Source of the DNA: Amoeboaphelidium protococcarum X5
Taxonomy: Eukaryota; Fungi; Aphelidiomycota
Length of the DNA stretch: 64,000 nt
Assembly (NCBI GenBank): GCA_023515725.1
Contig: JALDTO010000214.1
Coordinates: 124,001 to 188,000, forward strand
Reading direction: 5' to 3'
Shown one piece after another: positions 13,167 to 57,790 of this stretch; within the stretch, counting starts at the first letter, position 1; each line of letters begins with the position of its first letter. Both the position numbers and the translations under genes were made by a program. The notes under the pieces are model-generated. The model was not told the origin of the DNA and did not search any database. It saw only the letters and a list, made by a program, of their open reading frames with translations.

Positions 13167-15107
13167 TCAGTTATCAATCGATATTTCTTCCACATTATAC
13201 AGAGCATTGTTAATATCATCCTATGCATCATCACTGTTGATATCAGAGTCAAGCTCTATAGAATCTTCCAATAGATCTGCATCATTTTTACATTGATAGT
13301 TCTAACCATGAGCGAGACCACCATTTCGAAACTGTCCGTGTATAGATTTATTCATGAATAGTAGACGCTTGGTGGAATACTTTGACTCATACGTCAAATT
13401 CACCATCTCAGGGTGCATTGTAGAGCATAGAGCGGACATACAATTCACAGTTCCAGCAGAGTATTTAGGCAACGTATAGCTAAATTAATAAGTGGGATCA
13501 ATTAAGTTGCTATTAGATTTCACAGATTTAACTAGACTGGAAAAGGCATTCTAGACAATTACGCGAATATTATCTGCACCCAATCCAAATAGATTACTTT
13601 TCAACAAATATAAAAGTTGACTCAGTACCAACAACATGCCAAGCTTATTGATTTTCTCAGTCAAAGACGTCGTGTTAAAGAACTGTTTCAACTCATACTA
13701 TGAGAGCAGTTTTTGAGCAATAAAAACATGTTACAGATCGGCCCATAATTTGTTATAACCAATTTCAATGAGGAGCTGCAATGATGGCGACACTTCAACG
13801 TCTTCCGAAGGCTCCTACAACCAGTAATCAAACTAAGATGAAAGATTAGACTGCTTCTCTTGCAAATCAACAATATGACGATCACTGTGGAGATAATTGC
13901 TTTCGCTGATTAACTAAGACAGTTACGTATCATTGTTCTTCTTCAGTGAGGGATGCAAAGTTCCAGACTCGAGGGAATCAGCAATAGCATTCATTACCTA
14001 TACATAATCTGTCTAGTTTACCGTTTACTAGCAGAATATCCACAGAAAGTCACAAAAGTCCCAATCCTGTCGGAACATCTTCCTATCTAAATCACTGCCA
14101 AGAATATCGTCTTAATCGTCAATGTCGTGTTATTGCAACTGTTGAAAATATTCAATAGCTCTACCTTACAAATAAGATTCCAAGAAATTATCCACCTACA
14201 TACTAGCACTCACTTTATTCTTCAAACCAGTCCAAAGATCTACGCCTTGATCAGCATTTCTAATCTTATTCAAATTGACCAACGCCAAGTATTGATGTTT
14301 AATCTACTACAATTGGGACGAGCCTTCAAACGACATTGGACATAATTTCACATTTAATGAGGCTTCAAAGTTTTAAGGTGCTTTATCAAGTGCTACTTCA
14401 GAACCAGCTTAATTAAGAGCATAGCTTAGACGGACATTAATCTAATTCTTTAAGTCGTACTAAGAGAGGTAATCATTGTTCATTAGATTGTAATTGCAAT
14501 TGACGCGGCAACTATCTCTTGCGGACCACGGAATACCAGCTTATACAGTTGAAAGACCACAATTTTCACTATCAATTAGCTGAATCTAATCATCTTAAAT
14601 TTAAACACCACAATATCCAGTAGCACTATTCTCGAACTAGCATAGTATTAAAATACACCGACTGTCTTCCTCATTAATCGCCAGAAATCCGTTCTGAAAC
14701 GCGACTGAAACAAGAGAGCAGAAATAACGCGCAACATTTACAGAGACAGGCACAAAGTTGGCACCAGGCGTCTAAAACGGGTCCAAATTGGCAGAAATTT
14801 GAGTATTTAAGTCTATGTCCAGAATTCTCGTATGCTGTCTCTCCTTATGGTTATTCATCTGAGATTACGAGGAGAAGACCAAATGGTAGTCATCAACTCC
14901 AAACGCGGTAGAAATTAAATCACCATTTCGAGCACTGCATCTGACAATACTACAAGTTGCATCCAATTCAAATACCTACAAACTAAAACTAATACATACA
15001 ATAATGGTACTCAGAACCACAAAATAAAATACCTTATGCAAGTCTGCAGAAGACTGTTGCAAAGCAGCGTTGAGATTATCTATATGCTGTTATTTGAACA
15101 AATCCAT
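13167..15107 (-). CDS. ZWILCH: Zwilch-like kinetochore RZZ subunit (627 aa)
   Basis: RQDWDFCDFLW, SGTLHPSLKKNNDTQLSQLI and LLIEIGYNKLWAD resemble Zwilch R-DLDFAEQLW / GDIQPW / LLEIGLDKLKKD (recalled); intron 14976-15032. Confidence 0.72.
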
Positions 15108-15374
15108 GATTGCAAGCAATGCTCCAAGAAAAAGGTCATAAGTAGTAGTATCACTCACTGAAACAGAAACGTCGCTCCACATCGGTAAAAGTAAAACTGA
15201 GAGAAATTTCAACACAAAAAGACAGCTATAGAGCGATAAACAATCACTCTCAATAAGTGATGCAGTCTGTCAATTTCAAAAAGAAATAATAATATAACAA
15301 AAATAAGGCTAGTAAATTATTTCCAGATCATGCGATCAATATACACCGCTCCGACACACATACTACGACGGCAA

Positions 15375-20340: not shown

Positions 20341-22672
20341 TCATCTCTTGCGTTTGGATTTAGATTTCAACTGAGGACTACCTTCTTCAGTTTAATCAAG
20401 TTTGGTGGAAGATTAAGACATAAGCCTTGAGTGAGCCAGAGCATTAACATTACCATCTGGTTTCAACAAAACCATCTTACAATCTTCGTCCTTTGTCACC
20501 ACGATTCGCTCCTCATTCGCCAGGTGCAGTGTGGAGATGAACCATCGCGATACATTCCATCCGGGCAATCTCTGGACTAGCTGAGAGAAATCCAATCGCT
20601 TCTCCTCTTACACCTTGTCTTGAAAAGTCTCAAGCACACTTTCACGCACAATATCTACATCGAATACACCGCGGATGTGTTATTCGTGCAAAAGAGGCTA
20701 CAATCTATTCTCCCACGACTTTACATTCTTGGACAGATTAGACTCTATCCTTCGCTCGTAGTCATTGGCTAGTTGCATGTAATTCTTAATTTTTAATCGG
20801 CAAAGATCTTCAAATGACTAGATTGGCTTCTCAACTACAACCTGGTCAACTATGAAACCAGCTGAGGAATTAGATGGCTCTATATCCATATCTGTGCCTT
20901 GTGAGTGAGTACTTTGCCTATTACTCTCTTCATTAAGAGAATCATGAAGATCTGCAGACAGAATATCAGCATTAGTGTCGAAATCATCATCATCTTCAAC
21001 ATCGTGGGCACCAGGGACATGATTTTCATTATGACTAGTTATACTATCGTCCTCTCCACCCATCGAGCCTTAGTCAAGGTAATTTTCAAACGATGGCATC
21101 TCAAGCACGCTGGCATCCTGCTCCTCAGTCACCTCAATCTCTTTATACAGTTTTTCTTGTTTAGGCTTCATGATCTTGTCTCTTCTCTCCTTTTCTTTCA
21201 CATACAGATATTCGAATTGAGGATCAATGTTATGGAATAAATCCTTGGGTATGCGTGACTTTAGTTTGGCTTACTGCACTTCTTTAATGAATACAGGCAG
21301 AGGCTTGAGTTTCGGTTTGTGCTCCATGTTGGCCGAAATCACCTTCTCTACAATTTTAAATTACCTGTTTACGGCTCCCTTCTTGAATGGTTTTGACGTC
21401 TAGTCTTCCTCATGAGGATCCATAAACTACCAAAATGTAAGATGATTCTATAATCTTTTAGCGCGCTTAGGAGGAGTAGCTTCAACTGTCACTTTCCTAG
21501 TCACGAGCTTCTTTGGTGGAGTCTTTAATTTCTACAGATTCCGGATATTTAAAGAACTCTTCCTGGGATTCGAAATATCTTCCACCGTGGAGTAATGAGG
21601 ATGGACAATGTTCTCAATACCTTCCTCATCATCACCATCACTGTCGTCATTCTACATGTCACTATTAGAATTGTCATTCTGTAAATCAGGTACAGAGTCA
21701 CCAGCCTTAGACAACGATTATCCACCATTAGATTCATGCATGTGCGCCAATTAACTAGAGCTCTGCGGCTCTCCACTGAATCCAAAATCATAAGGCTGAT
21801 TATTATTACCATTATTATCAAAGTTTCCATCATCAACCTATGCCACATCAATATCTGGAATAGTGAGATCAGCAACATTGAAAGCAAAACTAGAGCGACG
21901 AGCTGAATACTCATCTGAATGGTCAATTTGAGAGAGGACTGCTTTAGAAAAGAACATTCCATTGACAGCTATGAAAGCTTGATTGATCTCAAAATCTGAT
22001 TTCGAACCAATAGATTCACCGTCTGCAGTCAAAATCTCAAAATTACCACTACCAGCGCCGCCAATAGACTTTAAGCTAGAACTGGAGGATCCATAAAATA
22101 CGAGCACATTTTCACACTTAAAACTGTCCATACAAACAGGCTCTTCATTCGCATTAAAGTCCTTCTTCTACAGAGCTGAATCTAAACAATCAAAAGAGTC
22201 GAAAATCCCGTTAGCATTACGCTGCCGACCTTTCAGCTTGCCGTTATTGCCTTCACCGTCCTGTGCTTACCCATCATCTGAATTATTATCATTATCGTCA
22301 TCATCTCCGCCATCTTAATTTTTACGATCACCAGATGAAGAGCCTCTATTGAAAATATAATCATGAGCCTCCTAAGTCATGGAATACAGATATTAGACTT
22401 TCTTCGAGTATATATTCGCACTATTCTAAATTAATAAAGCAGCCTACGCAAAGTTGACTCCATTTCCACCATCTGCATCTGAATTTTATTATTATAGAGT
22501 CTACGTCATCTTGTCCATTTCATCGACATACTCAGTCAACTCCTATGCCAAATCAATATCCCAATTATCCGCAAGGACTCTACATGAACAGTCAAGATAC
22601 AGATTTCAGTAACGTATACATGATAATTTACCTGAGTGGCTTCAATAACTAGAGATACTTGACACTGTCCAT
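20341..22672 (-). CDS. NCAPH2: Condensin II kleisin subunit CAP-H2
   Basis: LLKPLRVLADNWDIDLA, NFAQAALLIQNSANIYSKKVQYLY, C-terminal VSRWFISTLHLAN; intron 22580-22631. Confidence 0.88.
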
Positions 22673-24710: not shown

Positions 24711-26693
24711 ATGAAACGACCTCCGGGAGACTTGATATTGAATGTGGATATTAATGGCGATGTGTAGTCAATTCATTTGAAGGCATGTGAGACTATAGAG
24801 CAGGCTGCTATGCGTCTGATCATCTCTAAGCCTGCTTGCTTCAACAGCTCTATGCTTTCTGATTTGGTATAATTGTTAACTGCTGCTGCTGAGAAGAAGT
24901 TGTTGGATTTTAACTAACAATACTAGTAGTAATAGGCCGCGATAGAGCCAGACTATGACTTAATACAGTTGTGGTGGTAGAAAAAGATTCAGACATCCTA
25001 TCGAAAGTATTATTAGCCAAGTGAAAGTGCCAATGTCTTGACATGTTTAGCTGAGTTATATAATGATTCTGCGGCATTTGACTGTATAATGAAGTTTATG
25101 GGAGATTCATCTAGGCGGATTGATTCGATGATTGCGCAGCATTCCAAGTAGATTCAAGAGTTTAGAGCATAATACTCCGCCGCCGACTTGAAATCATCAA
25201 GTGCCATGCAGAGATTCACAGAGGACAAGGAGATTCTATAGGCTACTCTTAAAAGTGAACTTGATGATTTACACTGACAGTAGAAGGAGACTTTTATGAA
25301 GCTTCTGAATAGTTTGAGAGAAGGAGGATAGGTTTCTGGTCTGATTCAGGATACAACTAAGGTGTCAGTAACAGATCCGGTTGTATCTAAACGCAATTCT
25401 TTACAATAGATTGAATAGCATGTGGATATGGGAAGTGTTTAAAAGTTGCAAGATATGGGTTTTGACCCTAAAGTTTCCAAGAGGGCGTTAGTTATGTCGA
25501 AAGGGGATGTAAATCAAGCTCTTACTCTTCTGTTGGACGGTGCAGTACGTGTGGATGACGACTCTTCTACTACCGGTAAAACATCTGATGAGTATGTCAT
25601 TGTTGAGCAAAATTAGGCACCATTGAGTAATAACTCTCTTTTGAATTAAGGATAGGGAATGGCTGCACAAAACTTTAAAAAGTTGGGATCATGGTTTGAA
25701 AAGGCCAGATCATAAATTGATAGACTCTCCGACAGTCAAGTTAGTAGTCAGATGCATGAATAACCGCCTCAGACTGAGAGTTTTACTATAACACTCGGTA
25801 CTCACATTTAGCATACGTAAAATGTGCGTCTTACTGTGTAGAAGTATTCTGATTTCGTTCGTCACCCAATGTCTGCTCTAGAACGCGACGCTTTACGTGC
25901 ATAAACTCTTGTCACTTTGCTGTCGAATAAAGCTGTCGCGTTAGTAAATATTCTGCCTATTTAGTAATGGGAAAGCTTCAAGGCTGGCAAGTTTAACGAT
26001 ATCTTTCATAGGGCGTGTAATTATGAAACCGAGTATGTGTTTGATCCCTTGGACGTATAGCTTCGAAGTATTGAAGACGAGTATACAAATCGCATTAGCG
26101 GAAAAATTGAATTTTGTGAAGGAGATATTCTAGTTACGAAGCATTCTAATCTGCCTCAGGTGTCCACGGTATGTCATTTGATTTGCGATGAATTCACATT
26201 CGAAGCTGAATTGAGTTCTAAATCAAATATCATTGCTGGTCTTCGGAACTTATTTGGAATTGCAAACAAGTATGGTATTCATGAACTCATAGTACCAGTG
26301 CTTGCATATCCGGACTAGTACACTCCACCGGCGGGAGCATCTGGAAAAGTATAGCAGTTGCAATCTAATAGCAAGAGTTTCTCTCTAACGCGTTCAGGAT
26401 CATTTGGCGCGCTCGCGTAACTTGTTTCCCAGTCAGGCAACTCATCAGGATAAGATCTACATCTGGACTCTTCTCACCTTCTTAAAAGAAGCGAGTGTAT
26501 TCTCAAAATGCTCAAATCTTGTTGGATGGAGTCTTTAATGACTAGGGGTGGCGAGGATTCAGTTCAAGATGGAAACTCTGGGTTGGAAGTGATATAGCTA
26601 GTTATTCCACCCAAGTTGCTACAGCTTAAAGAGAATTCTGGCCTATTCGCAGGCGTGTCGTCCCAAATCAGGAATATTTTTAAAGCCATCTGA
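24711..26693 (+). CDS. C12orf4/FERRY3 (DUF2362) homolog with internal UBA-like domain
   Basis: ESFTITLG, GDILVTKHSNLPQVSTVCHL, IAGLRNL, LKRSECILKMLK; UBA-like VQKLQDMGF...KGDVNQALTLLL. Confidence 0.78.
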
Positions 26694-26703
26694 AACAATC
26701 AAT
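26640..26703 (+). repeat. Boundary repeat copy 1 (live 3' end of the C12orf4 homolog)
   Basis: catctgaaacaatcaat identical at 26687 and 28481; degenerate copy near 30273. Confidence 0.8.
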
Positions 26704-26988
26704 ATCTCAATTTAATCTATTATGCTATTGACGATAGAAGTGAACGCTTAAGTCCTAAAATCATCATTTTTTGTGTACTCTGGCTTTTAAAGTTCGCGTG
26801 TATCAGGCATATTCTTGCCTAAAAGACATGTTAAAATTGTAATCTTGTGCAACTCTTACGCATCCATCGGGAGCCGCGTACCTGATTGGCCAAGATATAT
26901 TTAAAACCATTTTTGTAGCATTCCAGATTGCTTAGTCTTCTCTTAAAAAGTTTACTCTGCCTTTTTAAAATCGTGTTAGCTCATTTCT

Positions 26989-28341
26989 ATGGTTATAGTG
27001 TCCGATATATTGCGTTATACTGCTCCGCCTAGAGAGCATGTTGATAGGGATAATGGAAGCTCTGAAGAACCAACCAAGCCAAAGAATCCTCTTGTTATTG
27101 ATAATGATCACATTTGCCAACGGTGGACCCATTTTAATGAAGACATTATTGTGCCATTTAATGATTTTATTTAGAATAAGCTGGAAGTTGATTGTGATAT
27201 CAGATTGAAAACTAAAAATCCCGTAATAGTTGGTGAATAGTCCTTGTATGGAGTATTGGTGTCGTATTATTGTACTCTTATTGAAGAGTTGTTTTCAGCA
27301 CTTGGACATGACATCCGCATTGAATAAGGCTCTCAGGATGTGATTCTTGATCCTGATTTTGTAGTCAGTTATCAGAAAGATCCCTCTCTGGAACCTACTT
27401 ACATTCTTCCTATTGAGGTTAAAACGGACTGGGCATTTGATGTTTAAGGTCAGTTGTACGATTTGAATATTCTCAATACTTCCAAGGTCAAGGATGCAGT
27501 CTAGTAGATTTATGGGTATATGACGGCTAATCATTTCAGATATGGGATATTGTGCACTTATGAACGTTTTTATTTTATGAGACGTGGTGGATATAATGGC
27601 TAGCAGAAGACAATGCTTGAGATTAGCGATGTGGTTGATTACCAATAATTAGAGCCTTTTACTATAATGAAGGCGTTGTGTGCCATCGTTCACCTTGCTA
27701 AGACTGATTTTTTCTTGTAGTCTCCATTCGGTACTCCACATGTTACGAGGGAGTCATTTCCTGGGAATCAGGAAGTATAATTTGTCAAGTAATAGATCAA
27801 GTTTCATGATATATGCTTTGGACAACGCGTCACTCGCTCTAGTGTTGGATCTATAGTCAAATATGGAGAAGATTCTGAGTTATTGATGAAAATTGTGGAT
27901 TGTCTCAAGCATAAGAATGAATTTTAGATTGAGAAGCTTTAAACAGAGGTGAAAGCTTACCAATTATTAGCAGAGTTGCAAGGAATCTGTATTCCAACCT
28001 TCCATGGCTATTTCTGCGGCAGTGGCTGGGTTGACTTTATCGTCATGAAGAATGTGGGTACTTCTATAAGAAGACAACTATGGAATGGTGTTGTATAGGC
28101 CACGCCATCGTTCCAAGAAGAAGTTATATTTTAAGTGGCAATTATTCTACAAGAATTGCACAGACGTGGAGTTGCGCATGGCGATGTCAGACTGCCCAAT
28201 GTTGTGCGAGATGATCAAGATTAACTGTTTCTGATTGATTTCTCGGATGCTGTCTTTAGATGTGATGATGAGTTGGAGTTCAACGCCGAATGTAAGAGAG
28301 ATTGGGAGTTTTTGGCCAATTTATTTAATGTAAACTATTGA
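26989..28341 (+). CDS. PD-(D/E)XK restriction-endonuclease-fold + atypical kinase protein, copy 1 (450 aa)
   Basis: LDPDFVV...LPIEVKT...AVQQIYGYM...YGILCTY (nuclease); LMK, EVKAYQLL, HGDVRLPNVV, LIDFS (kinase); intronless. Confidence 0.85.
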
Positions 28342-28433
28342 TCAACTGGTTAATTGCATTATTGCTGGAATAATAAATATATTTGAAATTGCTTACGAAA
28401 ATGGCACCTATTGGTGACAATCTTACAGAACTG

Positions 28434-28497
28434 TGACTCTTTGCAAGCCGGTCTTCCAGTATAAGGAACATTTTGAAAGTCATCTGAAACAATCAAT
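28434..28497 (+). repeat. Boundary repeat copy 2 (decayed C12orf4 C-terminus)
   Basis: Reads LFASRSSSIRNILKVI* versus live LFAGVSSQIRNIFKAI*. Confidence 0.8.
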
Positions 28498-28791
28498 TCA
28501 AATTATAGCTTTTACCGAATTAAGTGAGGCCTTAACTCTTAACGATGAAGAAAGAGAGACTTACGTTGTAATTCTCAGAAACATTTAAAGATATCGAAGA
28601 TCTTATCTAGCCCTTCAATTAATTTGTGTTACTTTCGCGTTGAACTGATTAGACGGGATCACTTGCACATCGAATTCATCGCGATTCTGATAGGTCAATG
28701 TTTTATCAGTTTGAAACAATTCAATTCTTTTTCGTCTTTCTCATTTTCTTTTCTAAACAATTTACGAGTTTAACTGTGTTTACAAAATCTT

Positions 28792-30144
28792 ATGATCAAA
28801 GTATCCGATATATTGCAGTATAACGCTCCCCCTAGAAAGCGTGTCGATAAGGGTAATAGAAGCTCCGAAAGAACAACCATTCCAAAGAATCCGCGTTATA
28901 TTGAAAATGATCACACTTGCCAAAGATGGACGTATTTTGATGAAGACATTATTGTGCCGTTTAATGATTTTATTCAGGATAAGTTAGGCTTTGATTGTAG
29001 AGACTTATTGAATACGGACGATCCTTTGGTATATGGCGAATAATCGTTGTATGTAGTTTTAGATCGGTATTATTGTAATCCCATTGAAGCGATGTTTAAA
29101 GCACTCGGAGACAAAGTCTGCATTGAAATAGGCGCTCAAAATGTGATACTTGATCCTGATTTTGTAGTCAGTTATCAGAAAGATCTCTCTCTGGAACCTA
29201 CTTACATTCTTCCTATTGAGGTTAAAACGGACTGGGCATTTGATGTTTAAGGTCAGTTGTACGATTTGAATATTCTCAATACTTCCAAGGTCAAGGATGC
29301 AGTCTAGTAGATTTATGGGTATATGACGGCTAATCATTTCAGATATGGGATATTGTGCACTTATGAACGTTTTTATTTCTTGAGACGTGGTGGATCTAAT
29401 GGTTAAGACAGGAAGCTGCTTGAGATTAGCGATGTGGTGCGTTATCAGTAATCATAGCCTTTTACTGCAATGAAGGCGTTGTGCGCGATAATCCATATGG
29501 CTAAGACTGATTTCTTCATGACATCACCTTTTAGCACTCCTATCGTGACTAGGAAATCATTGGCAGTTACAAGGGGCAATCTATATATAAAGCAGTAGAT
29601 CATGTTTCATGATATATAGTTTGGAGAGCGTATTACACGCTCCAGCGTTGGATCTATCGTAACCGTTGGGAGAAATCTGGAGTTATTGATGAAAATCGTC
29701 GACTGCTGGAAAGATAGTAATTAAGGTCAAATTGAAAAACTGAAGAAAGAGGTGAAAGCTTACCAATTATTAGCAAAGTTGCAAGGAGAGTGTATTCCAA
29801 CCTTCCATGGCTATTTCTGCGGCAGTGGTTGGGCAGATTTTATTTTAATGAAAAATGTCGGGACTCCTGTAAGTATGACGACTCCTGATGGTACTGTATA
29901 AGATACGTCATAGTTGGAAGATGAGATTAAAAGCTCCGTTTATAAGATTTTAGTAAAATTGCACCAACTTGGGGTTGCGCATGGCGATGTCAGACTGCCC
30001 AATGTTGTGCGAGATGATCAAGATTAACTGTATCTGATTGATTTCACGGAGGCTGTCTTTAAATGTGACGGTGAGGAGGAGTTCACCTCCGAATGTAAGA
30101 AAGATTTGGAATGCTTGAACAATTTGTTTAATGGAGGCCAGTGA
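28792..30144 (+). CDS. PD-(D/E)XK nuclease + kinase protein, copy 2 (450 aa)
   Basis: Same length and motifs as 26989-28341, offset 1803 bp. Confidence 0.85.
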
Positions 30145-30227
30145 TCGATTGTTTTATCATATCACTGATGTACTTAGAAATTTATTTGGAATTGATCACA
30201 AAAATGGCTCTTATTAGGGCGAACTAT

Positions 30228-30295
30228 GTCTCTTTGCACGCGTGTTTCTATCGCGATTACTCAGAAATCATTGAAAGGCATCTGTAACGAATAAT
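30228..30295 (+). repeat. Boundary repeat copy 3 (more decayed)
   Basis: tctctttgcacgcgtgt...gaaaggcatctgtaacgaataat resembles copies 1 and 2. Confidence 0.6.
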
Positions 30296-30412
30296 TAAAA
30301 TCTAAAATTGCAAACTCGTTTCACATTTTTGTTTCATCTTCTCTTCTCTGATCTCTCGCATTTGATTTTATCAGTTGCTTTGGAACTTCCATCTATTGAT
30401 CTATCCAAAGCA

Positions 30413-31792
30413 ATGACTGTTCAAGAAGCATTTTCTTAGGATGACAAGTAGTCCTTTATTCACGGTAAGAATTAAAATGATAATTAGAATAATACGATCA
30501 TGATTAATTTGTAGTTGAAGTGTGTGTAAAAGAAGACTCAACTGTGAGTCTGGACGCGTTAAAGATGCAAGTGCGTGACGTTCTCAAGTCTCTGAACAAG
30601 CTGATACTTTGCCCTTCCAATATCACGTCTCTTGTAAAGATTCCTGTAGTCCAATCTGTAATGCTATATGATGACTCCGCGTGTGAGATCCACTACATCA
30701 ATCTATCTAAAGTGTCCAGCTTCAAAATTCACATCTACGAGCTCAATCTGGAGTCGGCGATGGACGTTCGCGCCGATGAAACGGCCGATCCGCAAGATCA
30801 AATCTCGACTTTCACCGAGGATATTGTTCCGAGCAAAGCATTCGACGGACTTTGGGAGTCACTGGTATTCAAGGATGGAACTCCTGAAAAGCTGCTGAAG
30901 TACATAAGTGCCACTCTTAAGTTGTCAGACCGCAGAGTTAGTGAGAAAATCATTTCTTACAATCGCGTTATCCTTTTACATGGCGAACCAGGCAGTGGTA
31001 AGACTACCTTGTGCAAAGCCCTGGCTCAAAAGTTATCCATAAGATTTGGTGAAAGGTATTTCATGCGTATCATTAGTGATAGAGTTTGATACTATTCTGT
31101 GTAGATATTCTTATGGCAAGTTTATCGAGATTAATGCCCACTCACTATTTTCAAAGTGGTTTAGTGAGAGTGGAAAGCTGGTGATGAAGATGTTTGAATG
31201 TATCAAAAAGTCTTTGGCAGATCCACACGCTTTCGTTACCGTGCTGATTGACGAAGTTGAGTCTCTGGCTACGATAAGAAACAGTGGGAGTGAGCCATCT
31301 GATGCATTGCGCGTGGTCAATGCTCTTCTGACTCAACTCGATGGTATCAAAAGTTACCCAAATGTGTTGATAATGGCAACCTCCAATTTATCTCATTCAA
31401 TTGATTTGGCATTTATTGACCGTGCAGACATAAAGCTGCATATTGGGAAGCCGTGTCATGAAGCAATTTATCAGATACTACGTTCTGCTGTCATTGAGCT
31501 CGCAAGAACTGGCATTATTTCGTTGGGAGGTCAAACCATTATGGATTTGTACGAAATTCAAGTCTTTCTCAAGTACAATGATAAGCCGGTTCGTTAATCA
31601 GTGGAAAGCAGTATTTAACTGTGGAATATCTCGATCAGCGCCACCGGTCTAAGCGGAAGAACTTTGCGCAAGTTGCCCGTTTTGACCATTGCCAATTGTC
31701 CCAGCGAGGCACCGATATCCATTGAAGACTATCTGAATCAATTTCACAAGCAGACTACCATGGAATTTCAACAGAGAAAGCACTTTGAATGA
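30413..31792 (+). CDS. PCH2: Pch2/TRIP13 AAA+ ATPase
   Basis: [65 protein letters not shown]; introns 30465-30514, 31056-31104. Confidence 0.95.
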
Positions 31793-38741: not shown

Positions 38742-39217
38742 ATTCGATTATAAGCGACTTTAGAAATAGACTAAACTTATTAGAGCTTTCAAGAGCTTCA
38801 GACTTGGACTTCGCGGAGTGGGAAGAGAAAAGCATCAAAACTGCGCCTTCAAACAAGGCAAGTTAAATTCAGCGTTTTCACTGTGGTGGCAACGAATCCT
38901 GAATATCTTTGTTAATATAATGACCTTATAACGGGATCAAATAATCCATCATAAGAATAAATTGTATCATGAATTTTTATTATCTGCATTCATTTTATTT
39001 AAAGCTCAGTCACAAATCCCTTATGTTCAGTTCAAACCGCGTGGCGACTAAACCCTTTACGATTTGACTTGATGAAGCGGAGAGAACTTTGATGTTATTT
39101 TTCAATCTTCACGTATTTTAACCTTACATAATGCATACAATGTTCGCGCGTAGATAACAAAGGAAGATATTACTTGAATTTATAATTATATGCGCCTCTG
39201 TCAATTCAGTATGGTCA

Positions 39218-40015
39218 ATGAATCGCCAGAATGTCAGGTATCTTTACCAAGGAGCAGCATCACAGTAGAGATAGGCTCAACCTTCGCGACCGATAGGCAG
39301 GTGGGCTCCGTCACTGGAAAGTGTCATCGAAAATCACGAGAATTATGTATAGTAACATCAGCCTCTGATAGATGATTTTAGCGATATTGGCGATCATGAA
39401 AATCTTGCTAATCCATTAACTCTTGCAGCGGCTGATATCTACTATCCTCTGCCTGATGAATAACCTAAAGTATCGCCACCCGCATCTGTATCTCATGTTG
39501 GATCAGTCGAGCGACAATCATAATCAATCGTGCCCCACGCGTAATCGCGCTCCTAGTCCAGATTGGGGCTCTTTATATCTCGGCTCCCTGGTGTAAAGTA
39601 ATATGACTCAATAATCAACAAAGGTCTGATGGGGATGCAAACTTTGGATCTACGGCTTATAGCAGAGTCTTACCTGGAAGCAAAGTTCTATACACGGCAT
39701 CGGAATGAGGCACGGTTATCTTGTATATTTAGCTTCTGCAATGGCGTTATTGCCCGCAGTAGAGATCATCCTCTTGGAATTCCGCTGGCAGTAGCGAGTG
39801 GTGTCTCTGCCATTGGAATGGAAATCGTGCTTAATCGTTTGCGGAGGTTGCGGCGTGATATATAGTAGTTTCTATGCAATCACGATGGTGGATGTTTCCT
39901 GATGGATTAGATTGAGTAATTGGACTATAGTACTCCTAAGTCTATTTCAGTGAACGTTTAGCGGTTGTTGAATGAGTTACGTGTCCATAATGAACTCCCT
40001 CTGCTCGGATAATGA
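39218..40015 (+). CDS. Hypothetical protein (265 aa)
   Basis: Open frame ATG..TGA with TAR=Q, includes ORF 39629; no motif recognised; start uncertain. Confidence 0.6.
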
Positions 40016-55785: not shown

Positions 55786-57429
55786 TCAATTCCACTTGAT
55801 ATTATTAAGATCGGCCACATTCACGATCCATTCCATATTGTTGAATTCAATCCTCCATTGAGCCATCTTGTGATGTCCGTCATAGACTTCGCAGGTGTGC
55901 GCAGATGCTTTCGGTTTGAGACTCAGCTTAAATCTCAGCGGCAAGTGACGTTTGTCTTCACTCAACAGCTCTTGCTTTATGCCCCAAACCATCGAGTTAT
56001 GGGTGGCAAGGGCGAATTGGGACAAGTTGGGGACAGTCTTGCACCGGCACGGATTCCAAGATTGTTCGTAATACTCGGGCCAACGTTTAGGGAAATTGTC
56101 CACCATGTTGTGCATCATATCGACAGGCCAGCTCTAAGAATAACGCCACAGTCCACGACTCTACACTGGGTCGGTATTCTCAATGACACTCCAGTCGGTG
56201 ATTTCACGACTCTCACTGTACGAAGCAGTGAACGACTTGGTGTAATTAAAGTTCAGTCCACCTTCCACTTGCTCACCTTTAAACCCCAGATTCATACTCA
56301 TCTGGAAACTATCGGTGGAAGACCAGCTGCGGCCAACTTCATGCTTGGTGTTCTGTGTCGGAGGAGAACTTTTCAACCAGAATACATTATCCGGATCTTG
56401 AACACCATCTTCACGTTCTGCATGTACTCCAATCTCAACATTGGACATGTAAATACCGACTCCATCAGGATGAACCATCTAAGTATTTGGATTATGAAGA
56501 CCATCAACCAGCACAAATGCATAGTACAGCTACTGGAATGGCGGTGCCTGCATATACAGATACCAGTAGGTGTTGAGTCGATGGGTTATCACTTGATCAT
56601 CCTTGAAAGGAAACGGATCACTCCACGAGACAACCCAACTCTTATAAGTGGTCTCAATCAGCTATCGCCAAACAGCACCCTCATCCACAGGAACCATAGA
56701 ACCAGTGTTTTAAACTTGGTCCATACCATCTTGGATCTTGAATTACGCATCAGTGGATTTCTATCCTTGGACGTAATTCCAACAGGTGACTTGATCAAAA
56801 TCTCCGGCACAATAATGTAAATAGTCATGCACATCTTGAGCAATTTGCGAAAGCAACTTAGAGCTATCGTTGTTATTACTACCACCAAAAGAAGCAGTGA
56901 ACACTTTAGCATCAGTTACAGCCTAGTCATTTGATGATCGCGAGTAATCAAGTCCAGAGTAAGCAGAGTGAACAATATTCCCATCCTTACCAGCAGGCAA
57001 ATCAAAGACACGATAATGCACAGCATCATGGACATCCTGGAAAGTATCAATCAATAGTAGAGCACTGCCATCACTCGTGTCCTTCATGAAGGGGAACTTG
57101 GCTTCAGTCAATAACTACTTTCTCTATTCACTACTGACATCCACAAGCATTACAGGAATTCCAAATTACAGAATTTACATTACAGATTAAAACTCTAAAT
57201 CTAACTAGAAGCCAAGAGCCACATATGCAGCCACTGTATTATTAGTAGATTCTTTATGAATGAACTACAACTAATGATCACCACTCTATTAAAGCGCCTT
57301 GACAATCTAGAACGAATCAGTGTTCTCAACTGCAATATGAGAGTCGCCAGACAACCACTGCAAAGTGACTGAAGCATGGGCAATACCAACAGCGCAAAAT
57401 CCTGCCAAAATTGTAGATATAGTAACCAT
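55786..57429 (-). CDS. Secreted leukocidin/hemolysin-like beta-pore-forming toxin candidate (547 aa)
   Basis: One intronless frame with TAR=Q; signal peptide MVTISTILAGFCAVGIAHA; SPPTQN followed by amphipathic hairpin SWSSTDSFQMSMNLGFKGEQVEGGLNFNYTKSFTASYSESREITDW, then GLWRY. The fold is inference. Confidence 0.7.
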
Positions 57430-57790
57430 ACTTCTTACAATATTTAACCACCTGATTGTAAGAAAGCACGACTACAAGTGACAATGATAAAGGACACACA
57501 AAACTAAATGAAGACAGAAAGAGAAAAACGCCCAAAACGATGATAAAACGCGCAAAACCAAAATCAGGCGCCGAATGACGCCGCGAAATGCCCAGCTAAT
57601 GTGGCGCTGAAACAAGTCCATTTTTATTGTTTCAGATCGAAAGAATGAATGGCTGGCTGTGTGATGGGCGATGCTCTGATAATTGTCTGCGCTACGTTCT
57701 CTTTCATACTCTGCACTGATGGTGATTTCGTTTCTCTTATATGAATATCTCATTCATTGATTGTCAGACTCTCATATCTCGTCACATATA

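Follow-up and report, generated by a model that had tools for sequence, protein, structure and literature searches.

Two tandem nuclease-kinase genes

The DNA analysed here is a stretch of 64,000 nucleotides of Amoeboaphelidium protococcarum X5 (contig JALDTO010000214.1, positions 124,001 to 188,000, forward strand), called the window below and numbered from its first base. It carries two neighbouring genes that each encode a 450-residue protein with a predicted nuclease domain fused to a kinase domain, namely gene A, a type A paralogue (26989..28341, + strand), and gene B, a type B paralogue (28792..30144, + strand). Both frames are open under NCBI translation table 6, in which TAA and TAG are read as Gln, and both end at TGA; under the standard code both are interrupted. 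The genes are 70% identical in protein and 79% in DNA and align in a gapless register with a spacing of 1803 bases, in agreement with the two intronless 450-codon paralogues described in an initial annotation of this DNA. We place no intron in either gene, since the frames are open and the only GT-AG joints in transcript contigs from a related strain fall within the downstream Pch2 gene. A second in-frame ATG of gene A lies upstream at 26722; the start was set at 26989 because gene B and the homologues P0003-P0005 share this register.

Every motif quoted initially was located in both proteins: PDF (residues 122-124), IEVK (142-145), QIYGYM (173-178) and YGILCTY (185-191) for the nuclease, and HGDVRLPN (397-404) and IDF (416-418) for the kinase. 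The predicted PD-(D/E)XK motifs of gene A span 27235..27519 (+ strand) and comprise E83, P122-D123 (27352-27357), E143-x-K145 (27415-27423) and QxxxY at 173-177 (27505-27519), and its kinase catalytic residues K301, E320, H397-G-D399, N404 and D417 span 27889..28242 (+ strand); in gene B both sets occupy the corresponding codons of the same strand, 1803 bases further on. The catalytic residues of the two domains are kept in >90% of 125 aligned rows, with D123, E143, K145, Q173 and Y177 of the nuclease kept in 113-122 of them. Neither protein carries a signal peptide or the ubiquitin-like Crinkler header (PF20147, LxLFLAK), as had been noted before: no hydrophobic N-terminus was found (the best 19-residue hydropathy within the first 40 residues is 0.02 and -0.59), an LxLFLAK-like word is absent from both, and Pfam gave no Crinkler match at E<=1.

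The predicted structure of the two-domain protein has a predicted local distance difference test (pLDDT) score of 91, and its C-terminal part has a kinase fold. The nuclease region, modelled at pLDDT ~90, contains a helix (83-104), strands (108-113, 124-129 and 137-144), a second helix (165-180) and further strands (185-212), a predicted order that fits the alpha-beta-beta-beta-alpha-beta core of PD-(D/E)XK enzymes together with their catalytic motifs. The nuclease assignment draws on these motifs and on weak sequence matches to the type I restriction subunit HsdR. Four HsdR motifs (I, II, III and QxxxY) aligned in register with the family profile (P 0.017; controls 0.62 and 0.47), and homologue P0161 matches Pfam HSDR_N at 4e-5 across the corresponding stretch; the similarity is statistically weak, and HsdR has a helicase and a methylase partner, neither of which accompanies gene A or gene B. 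The nuclease domain of the window proteins gave no match in Pfam and no plasmid match. Two Pandoravirus DUF5898 models (BFVD A0A2U7UEV6 and A0A811BR09) align along most of the two-domain model at a root-mean-square deviation of 14-15, and on these models the giant-virus proteins possibly have the same architecture.

A headerless family and a converted nuclease core

By sequence, gene A and gene B are members of a family of headerless nuclease-kinase proteins comprising 485 clusters at 50% identity. Names were looked up for 20 of 149 representative matches, and 5 of these 20 are from A. protococcarum; other named relatives come from the chytrids Geranomyces, Gaertneriomyces, Borealophlyctis, Rhizophlyctis and Entophlyctis, from Paraglomus (Glomeromycota) and from the liverwort Calypogeia. 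As the nearest matches are to proteins of A. protococcarum (71-82% identity), the earlier guess of an aphelid-like lineage is upheld at the level of the organism. This species holds at least 6 loci of the family, another close pair being P0038/P0187, which have consecutive locus tags. Among 91 rows of at least 400 residues with an initial Met, 56 begin where the window proteins begin. Uncharacterised headerless 'kinase domain' proteins of 420-480 residues from chytrids, Basidiomycota, Ascomycota and Calypogeia are alignable with the window proteins over the full length from the first residues and have both active sites, but are just 25-35% identical to them, the A. protococcarum copies being an expansion of their own. 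The PF20147 header was found in 6 of 29 rows chosen for longer N-termini and in none of the remaining 96. In a quick tree of 107 of the 125 rows, rooted at the midpoint, 10 of the 11 A. protococcarum proteins form a single clade (Shimodaira-Hasegawa-like approximate likelihood ratio test value 99), the nearest neighbours of the window genes are headerless, and a separate group of 22 rows contains all six rows with a header, interspersed with headerless ones. Look-alikes in the Atlas, which are leads without alignment, were topped by headerless fungal clusters of 456-472 residues (0.98-0.99), with two SPOK2_N rows (44% and 98% of members) and one Crinkler row at 0.94. The design of nuclease plus kinase is widespread and not peculiar to the Amoeboaphelidium lineage.

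Pattern scans, an insensitive means of detection, found relatives in 0 of 70 matches in viral contigs and in 0 of 23 in prokaryote genomes. Among 21 distant metagenome loci, mostly short, the five longest showed no tandem copy and no long transposase-like frame by inspection without a Pfam scan. P0044, a protein attributed to the liverwort Calypogeia fissa and encoded on a contig of 66 Mb, falls close to the aphelid clade. In the A. protococcarum paralogue P0053 the nuclease glutamate is substituted and the kinase is intact, making this protein a candidate antidote-only copy.

The copies at the locus fall into two paralogue types, A (P0001 and P0003) and B (P0002, P0004, P0005 and P0010), and the nuclease core of gene A departs from its type. 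Codons 118-196 of gene A (27340..27576, + strand) are 98.7% identical to gene B and include a run of 192 identical bases (27384-27575) against a background of 75%. This segment is 99% identical to gene B and 78% to P0003, its own type-A counterpart. Because the tract resembles gene B and not P0003, and because of the identical run, we infer a conversion of the nuclease core from gene B to gene A, for which the matching tract of gene B (29143..29379, + strand; 92-96% identical to other type-B copies) is the putative donor.

Outside this core the types diverge unevenly. The strongest difference lies in kinase residues 346-392, which are 34-45% identical between types and 81-91% within them. In four of five pairs compared, the unlinked P0038/P0187 among them (85/114, or 75%, identical in the N-terminal part versus 319/330, or 97%, in the rest), residues 1-117 have diverged far more than the remaining sequence; the pair P0001/P0003 showed no such excess. 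Copies of the same type at the locus are 82-86% identical, versus 96-99% for the adjacent Pch2 proteins. The ratio of nonsynonymous to synonymous substitution rates (dN/dS) between gene A and gene B is 0.38 overall and 0.48 in the N-terminal part, which indicates genes that are constrained and not decaying; positive selection is not shown, since no ratio exceeds 1.

A proposed self-protecting toxin and its alternatives

Published accounts of Spok proteins supply the closest functional precedent by description. In Spok3 and Spok1 the nuclease is reported to kill via DNA damage and the kinase to protect in cis and in trans (PMC6660238; PMC9972908), and Fusarium Spok homologues are described as toxin-antidotes in yeast, proposed to maintain accessory chromosomes, in a paper that calls the nuclease-kinase architecture widespread (PMC12693581). 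As in gene A and gene B, the nuclease of SPOK1-4 and the FuSpoks precedes the kinase in one intracellular protein, and common to both are PD-(D/E)XK motifs with QxxxY, a core resembling HsdR (weakly so in the window proteins) and a compact C-terminal kinase with a catalytic aspartate. The QxxxY and PD-to-K spacing of the window proteins is that described for SPOK3, whose nuclease is likewise reported to match HsdR best (PMC6660238). Spok3 and Spok4 are also tandem paralogues with a converted nuclease domain, one Spok3 allele being described as having a killing domain identical to that of Spok4 (PMC6660238). This likeness is one of description, and Spok proteins have at least 700 residues versus 450 here. 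With Crinklers (Phytophthora infestans CRN8 and fungal PF20147 proteins) the window proteins have the C-terminal module in common: PF20147-bearing proteins are among the direct phmmer matches (P0073 at 1e-18 and five more), with homology extending across both domains, while the catalytic loop is non-RD (HGD) in gene A and gene B versus RD in CRN8. The architectural likeness to Crinkler-type proteins and Spoks proposed initially is borne out by direct matches for the former and by the SPOK2_N and Crinkler clusters among the Atlas leads, but by sequence the two genes are neither Spoks nor header-bearing Crinklers.

The likeliest mechanism for the pair, to which we give a probability of about 45%, is that of a self-protecting intracellular DNase toxin. 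The N-terminal domain would be an active DNase, and its activity would be neutralised through phosphorylation by the kinase, either of itself or of the target. The kinase may be viewed as the brake because the proteins lack an export signal, a cell that makes an intact DNase has to restrain it, and no other candidate lies within the protein. Which toxin a given kinase could neutralise would depend on two variable regions, the first 117 residues and residues 346-392 of the kinase. The benefit would arise in conflict among nuclei, chromosomes or co-infecting cells of one cytoplasm, in which a spore cut off without the matching gene would inherit the toxin without the antidote. The fused plasmodium of Amoeboaphelidium described below (PMC3975115) would offer such a cytoplasm. 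The status of the catalytic sites is consistent with such a design. In 111 rows covering both domains (14 gapped rows were excluded), both sites were kept in 99, the nuclease triad alone was changed in 10, the kinase alone in 1 and both in 1. After inspection ~8 of the 10 nuclease-only changes look real, giving ~8 versus 1 (sign test, p 0.04), and an excess of nuclease-only loss is the direction that a toxin-antidote predicts.

Several results weigh against a self-protecting toxin. The 10:1 asymmetry may stem from looser nuclease motifs, alignment slips or hit selection. The nuclease itself is elusive in fold comparisons: with the whole model, the matches among the rows listed were kinases; a nuclease-weighted profile gave 0 matches among solved structures in PDB; and hhalign of the family profile against HsdR gave P 0.014-0.024 at a probability of just 2-3%. 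The proposed restriction endonuclease (REase) fold has in its favour the in-register HsdR motifs, at weak statistics, against fold searches filled by kinases. The coiled coil and domain 1 of Spok (~200 residues before the nuclease) are absent here, the PD motif standing at residue 122 and the model containing no such domain, and so is the cluster C-x3-C-x13-C-x5-H-x7-H that precedes the Spok kinase; C-x3-C-x10..16-C is unmatched in both proteins, and the cysteine cluster is reported to be required for Spok resistance (PMC6660238). CRN8 has a similar two-domain logic, yet its kinase is no antidote: killing is reported for the wild type and persists in a single mutant with an inactive kinase (PMC3426532). 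A kinase in such a fusion thus need not be an antidote, and the initial statement that it confers resistance holds for Spok and fails for CRN8. Finally, every haplotype seen contains the locus, which lies amid housekeeping genes with no Starship or other transposon noted, unlike the mobile, polymorphic Spoks.

A host-directed DNase effector like CRN8 is an unlikely but serious alternative. Such a protein would enter the nucleus of the alga although it has no classical signal and would damage host DNA there, while its kinase would tune stability or activity and would not protect. The module sits behind true Crinkler headers in the 6 long homologues mentioned above, REase plus kinase is said in a review to make up about one sixth of CR (Crinkler-type) C-termini (PMC5289972), fast evolution and the many paralogue loci of the species fit an arms race, and gene B contains a basic patch, PPRKR. 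Yet gene A and gene B have neither header nor signal peptide, the 56 of 91 full-length relatives that share their start are equally headerless, the liverwort protein among them, and the tree sets the header-bearing rows apart from the window genes. Similarly improbable is a cell-autonomous defence nuclease, restrained by its kinase until invading DNA (virus or transposon) or a parasite signal leads to destruction of the invader or the cell. The family does occur in free-living fungi and a plant, intracellular anti-invader roles have been proposed for unsecreted CR proteins (PMC5289972), and a stable chromosomal position with diversifying N-termini fits an immune locus, but neither a sensor domain within the 450 residues nor a trigger is evident.

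More doubtful still is a spore killer that acts without meiosis. Amoeboaphelidium amoebae are reported to fuse into one plasmodium that is then cleaved into uninucleate spores (PMC3975115), and this would be a setting for such a killer: amoebae of different genotype would fuse within the algal cell, their toxins would mix, and only kinase-matched zoospores would survive after cleavage. The gene would be fixed at the locus and allele would drive against allele, which would explain the homogenised nuclease core together with the hypervariable N-termini. On this reading the minimal 450-residue protein would be the two-domain form ancestral to Spok-like drivers throughout early-diverging fungi. 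That the pair encodes relic or domesticated enzymes for housekeeping (DNA repair, or recycling of ingested host DNA), with no function in conflict, is very unlikely: the fixed position, dN/dS of 0.38 (purifying selection), neighbour-like composition and transcripts suit such a role, but the genes diverge far faster than Pch2, the family is patchy and many-copied, and the paralogues are mosaic. Least probable is a classical meiotic driver that, like Podospora Spok, kills meiotic products lacking it, whatever its architecture, Spok3/Spok4-like conversion pattern and neighbour Pch2, a meiotic checkpoint gene, might suggest. Pch2 adjacency needs no explaining in a gene-dense genome, the pair is in all haplotypes examined, Spok-defining parts are absent and meiosis is, according to the account cited, not shown in aphelids (PMC6299283), leaving the earlier suggestion of a meiotic-drive element unsupported.

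The nuclease-kinase architecture is known, and gene A and gene B are intact, fast-evolving and real members of it. What appears new is the overwriting of the nuclease core of gene A by gene B, the strongly variable N-termini, the decayed Fy-3 copies described below and the presence of the pair in every haplotype seen. Our literature search, in which subscription papers were thinly covered, found no paper on nuclease-kinase genes in aphelids and no published function for the headerless relatives of 420-480 residues. A term search of the main text of one A. protococcarum transcriptome paper (PMC8657485) gave no mention of Crinkler, nuclease or Spok, and the Paraphelidium paper describes Crinklers as apparently lacking. 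How one Spok protein serves as both poison and antidote is described as an unsolved question (PMC6660238; PMC9972908). As a natural 450-residue, two-domain version with a confident model, and with paralogues or alleles that have a common nuclease and differ in two short regions, gene A and gene B would be a compact test system for this duality and would show whether kinase self-protection is general among the hundreds of uncharacterised headerless relatives. If spore output proved to be distorted in fused plasmodia, spore killing would no longer be confined to meiosis and would reach the sister group of fungi; if not, the pair would simply join the other members of a toxin architecture already known to be widespread.

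The locus, its neighbours and other features of the window

The pair lies between a UBA and Fy-3 (FERRY subunit) gene (25296..26693, + strand; Pfam PF10154, E 2e-32) and a Pch2/TRIP13 AAA ATPase gene (30413..31792, + strand; Pfam PF23242, E 3e-20; also P0008, P0009 and P0012), the latter with two short introns (~30464-30514 and ~31054-31104, + strand) bounded by GT-AG joints. Sec16, kinesin and CAP-H2 complete the housekeeping surroundings. The 3' end of Fy-3 recurs after gene A and again after gene B as a decayed copy with an internal deletion, giving a layout of repeat-gene-repeat-gene-repeat. The copy 3' of gene A (28356..28505, + strand) matches 26227-26290 and 26608-26714 with scores of 37 and 80, versus background maxima of 36 and 40 in 129 windows; the copy 3' of gene B (30159..30309, + strand) matches segments of the Fy-3 3' end with scores of 50 and 45, versus maxima of 29 and 40 in 216 windows. 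With the segments picked after inspection, one of the four alignments is strong (80), one clear (50) and two marginal (45 and 37). These repeats would fit an old insertion with target duplication, followed by tandem duplication. The insertion between housekeeping genes suspected in the initial annotation has thus left a trace, but not a recent one, since GC, GC at third codon positions (GC3) and TAA/TAG use of the pair are like those of the neighbours and the pair is in every haplotype seen. No third fragment was found elsewhere in the window.

In the consecutively numbered records MP228_007166-8 and MIR68_005784-5, as in the merged model P0010, nuclease-kinase genes stand next to Pch2. The 843-residue P0010, in which a type-B gene is joined to Pch2, is taken as a gene-model merger, because separate records exist for the two genes. 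In run X4, from which the window may itself derive, gene A is linked to gene B by two equally deep versions, which we take to be the subgenomes of a hybrid. Run X6 extends from gene A into the spacer; the metagenome X8, which is independent, connects Fy-3 to gene A and has two versions of the spacer; coverage of the region in run X14 is minimal. None of the four DNA-type runs, whose contigs can show presence and not absence, gave a joint that leaves out both genes. Joints between genes A and B reflect the mosaic paralogues and not a rearrangement. Both genes are transcribed in a related strain, in which contigs from four runs of one study span them (level and stage are not readable from contigs); these contigs are considered transcript-derived because three of the four show the Pch2 GT-AG joints that the DNA-type runs lack.

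Elsewhere in the window, two long frames (13167-15182, - strand, 671 residues; 39092-40015, + strand, 307 residues) have no Pfam match at 1e-8. The same holds for a 655-residue frame (55786-57753, - strand) with a signal-peptide-like stretch near residues 108-128 and a C-terminal part of Ser/Thr-rich beta-like segments that, as an impression, recall aerolysin-type pore formers; a 402-residue antisense frame overlaps it. At 20341-22518 (- strand) lies the gene of the condensin II subunit CAP-H2, with Pfam CNDH2_N and CNDH2_C; condensin II is lost in most fungi, and its presence in an aphelid may be of interest to chromosome biologists.
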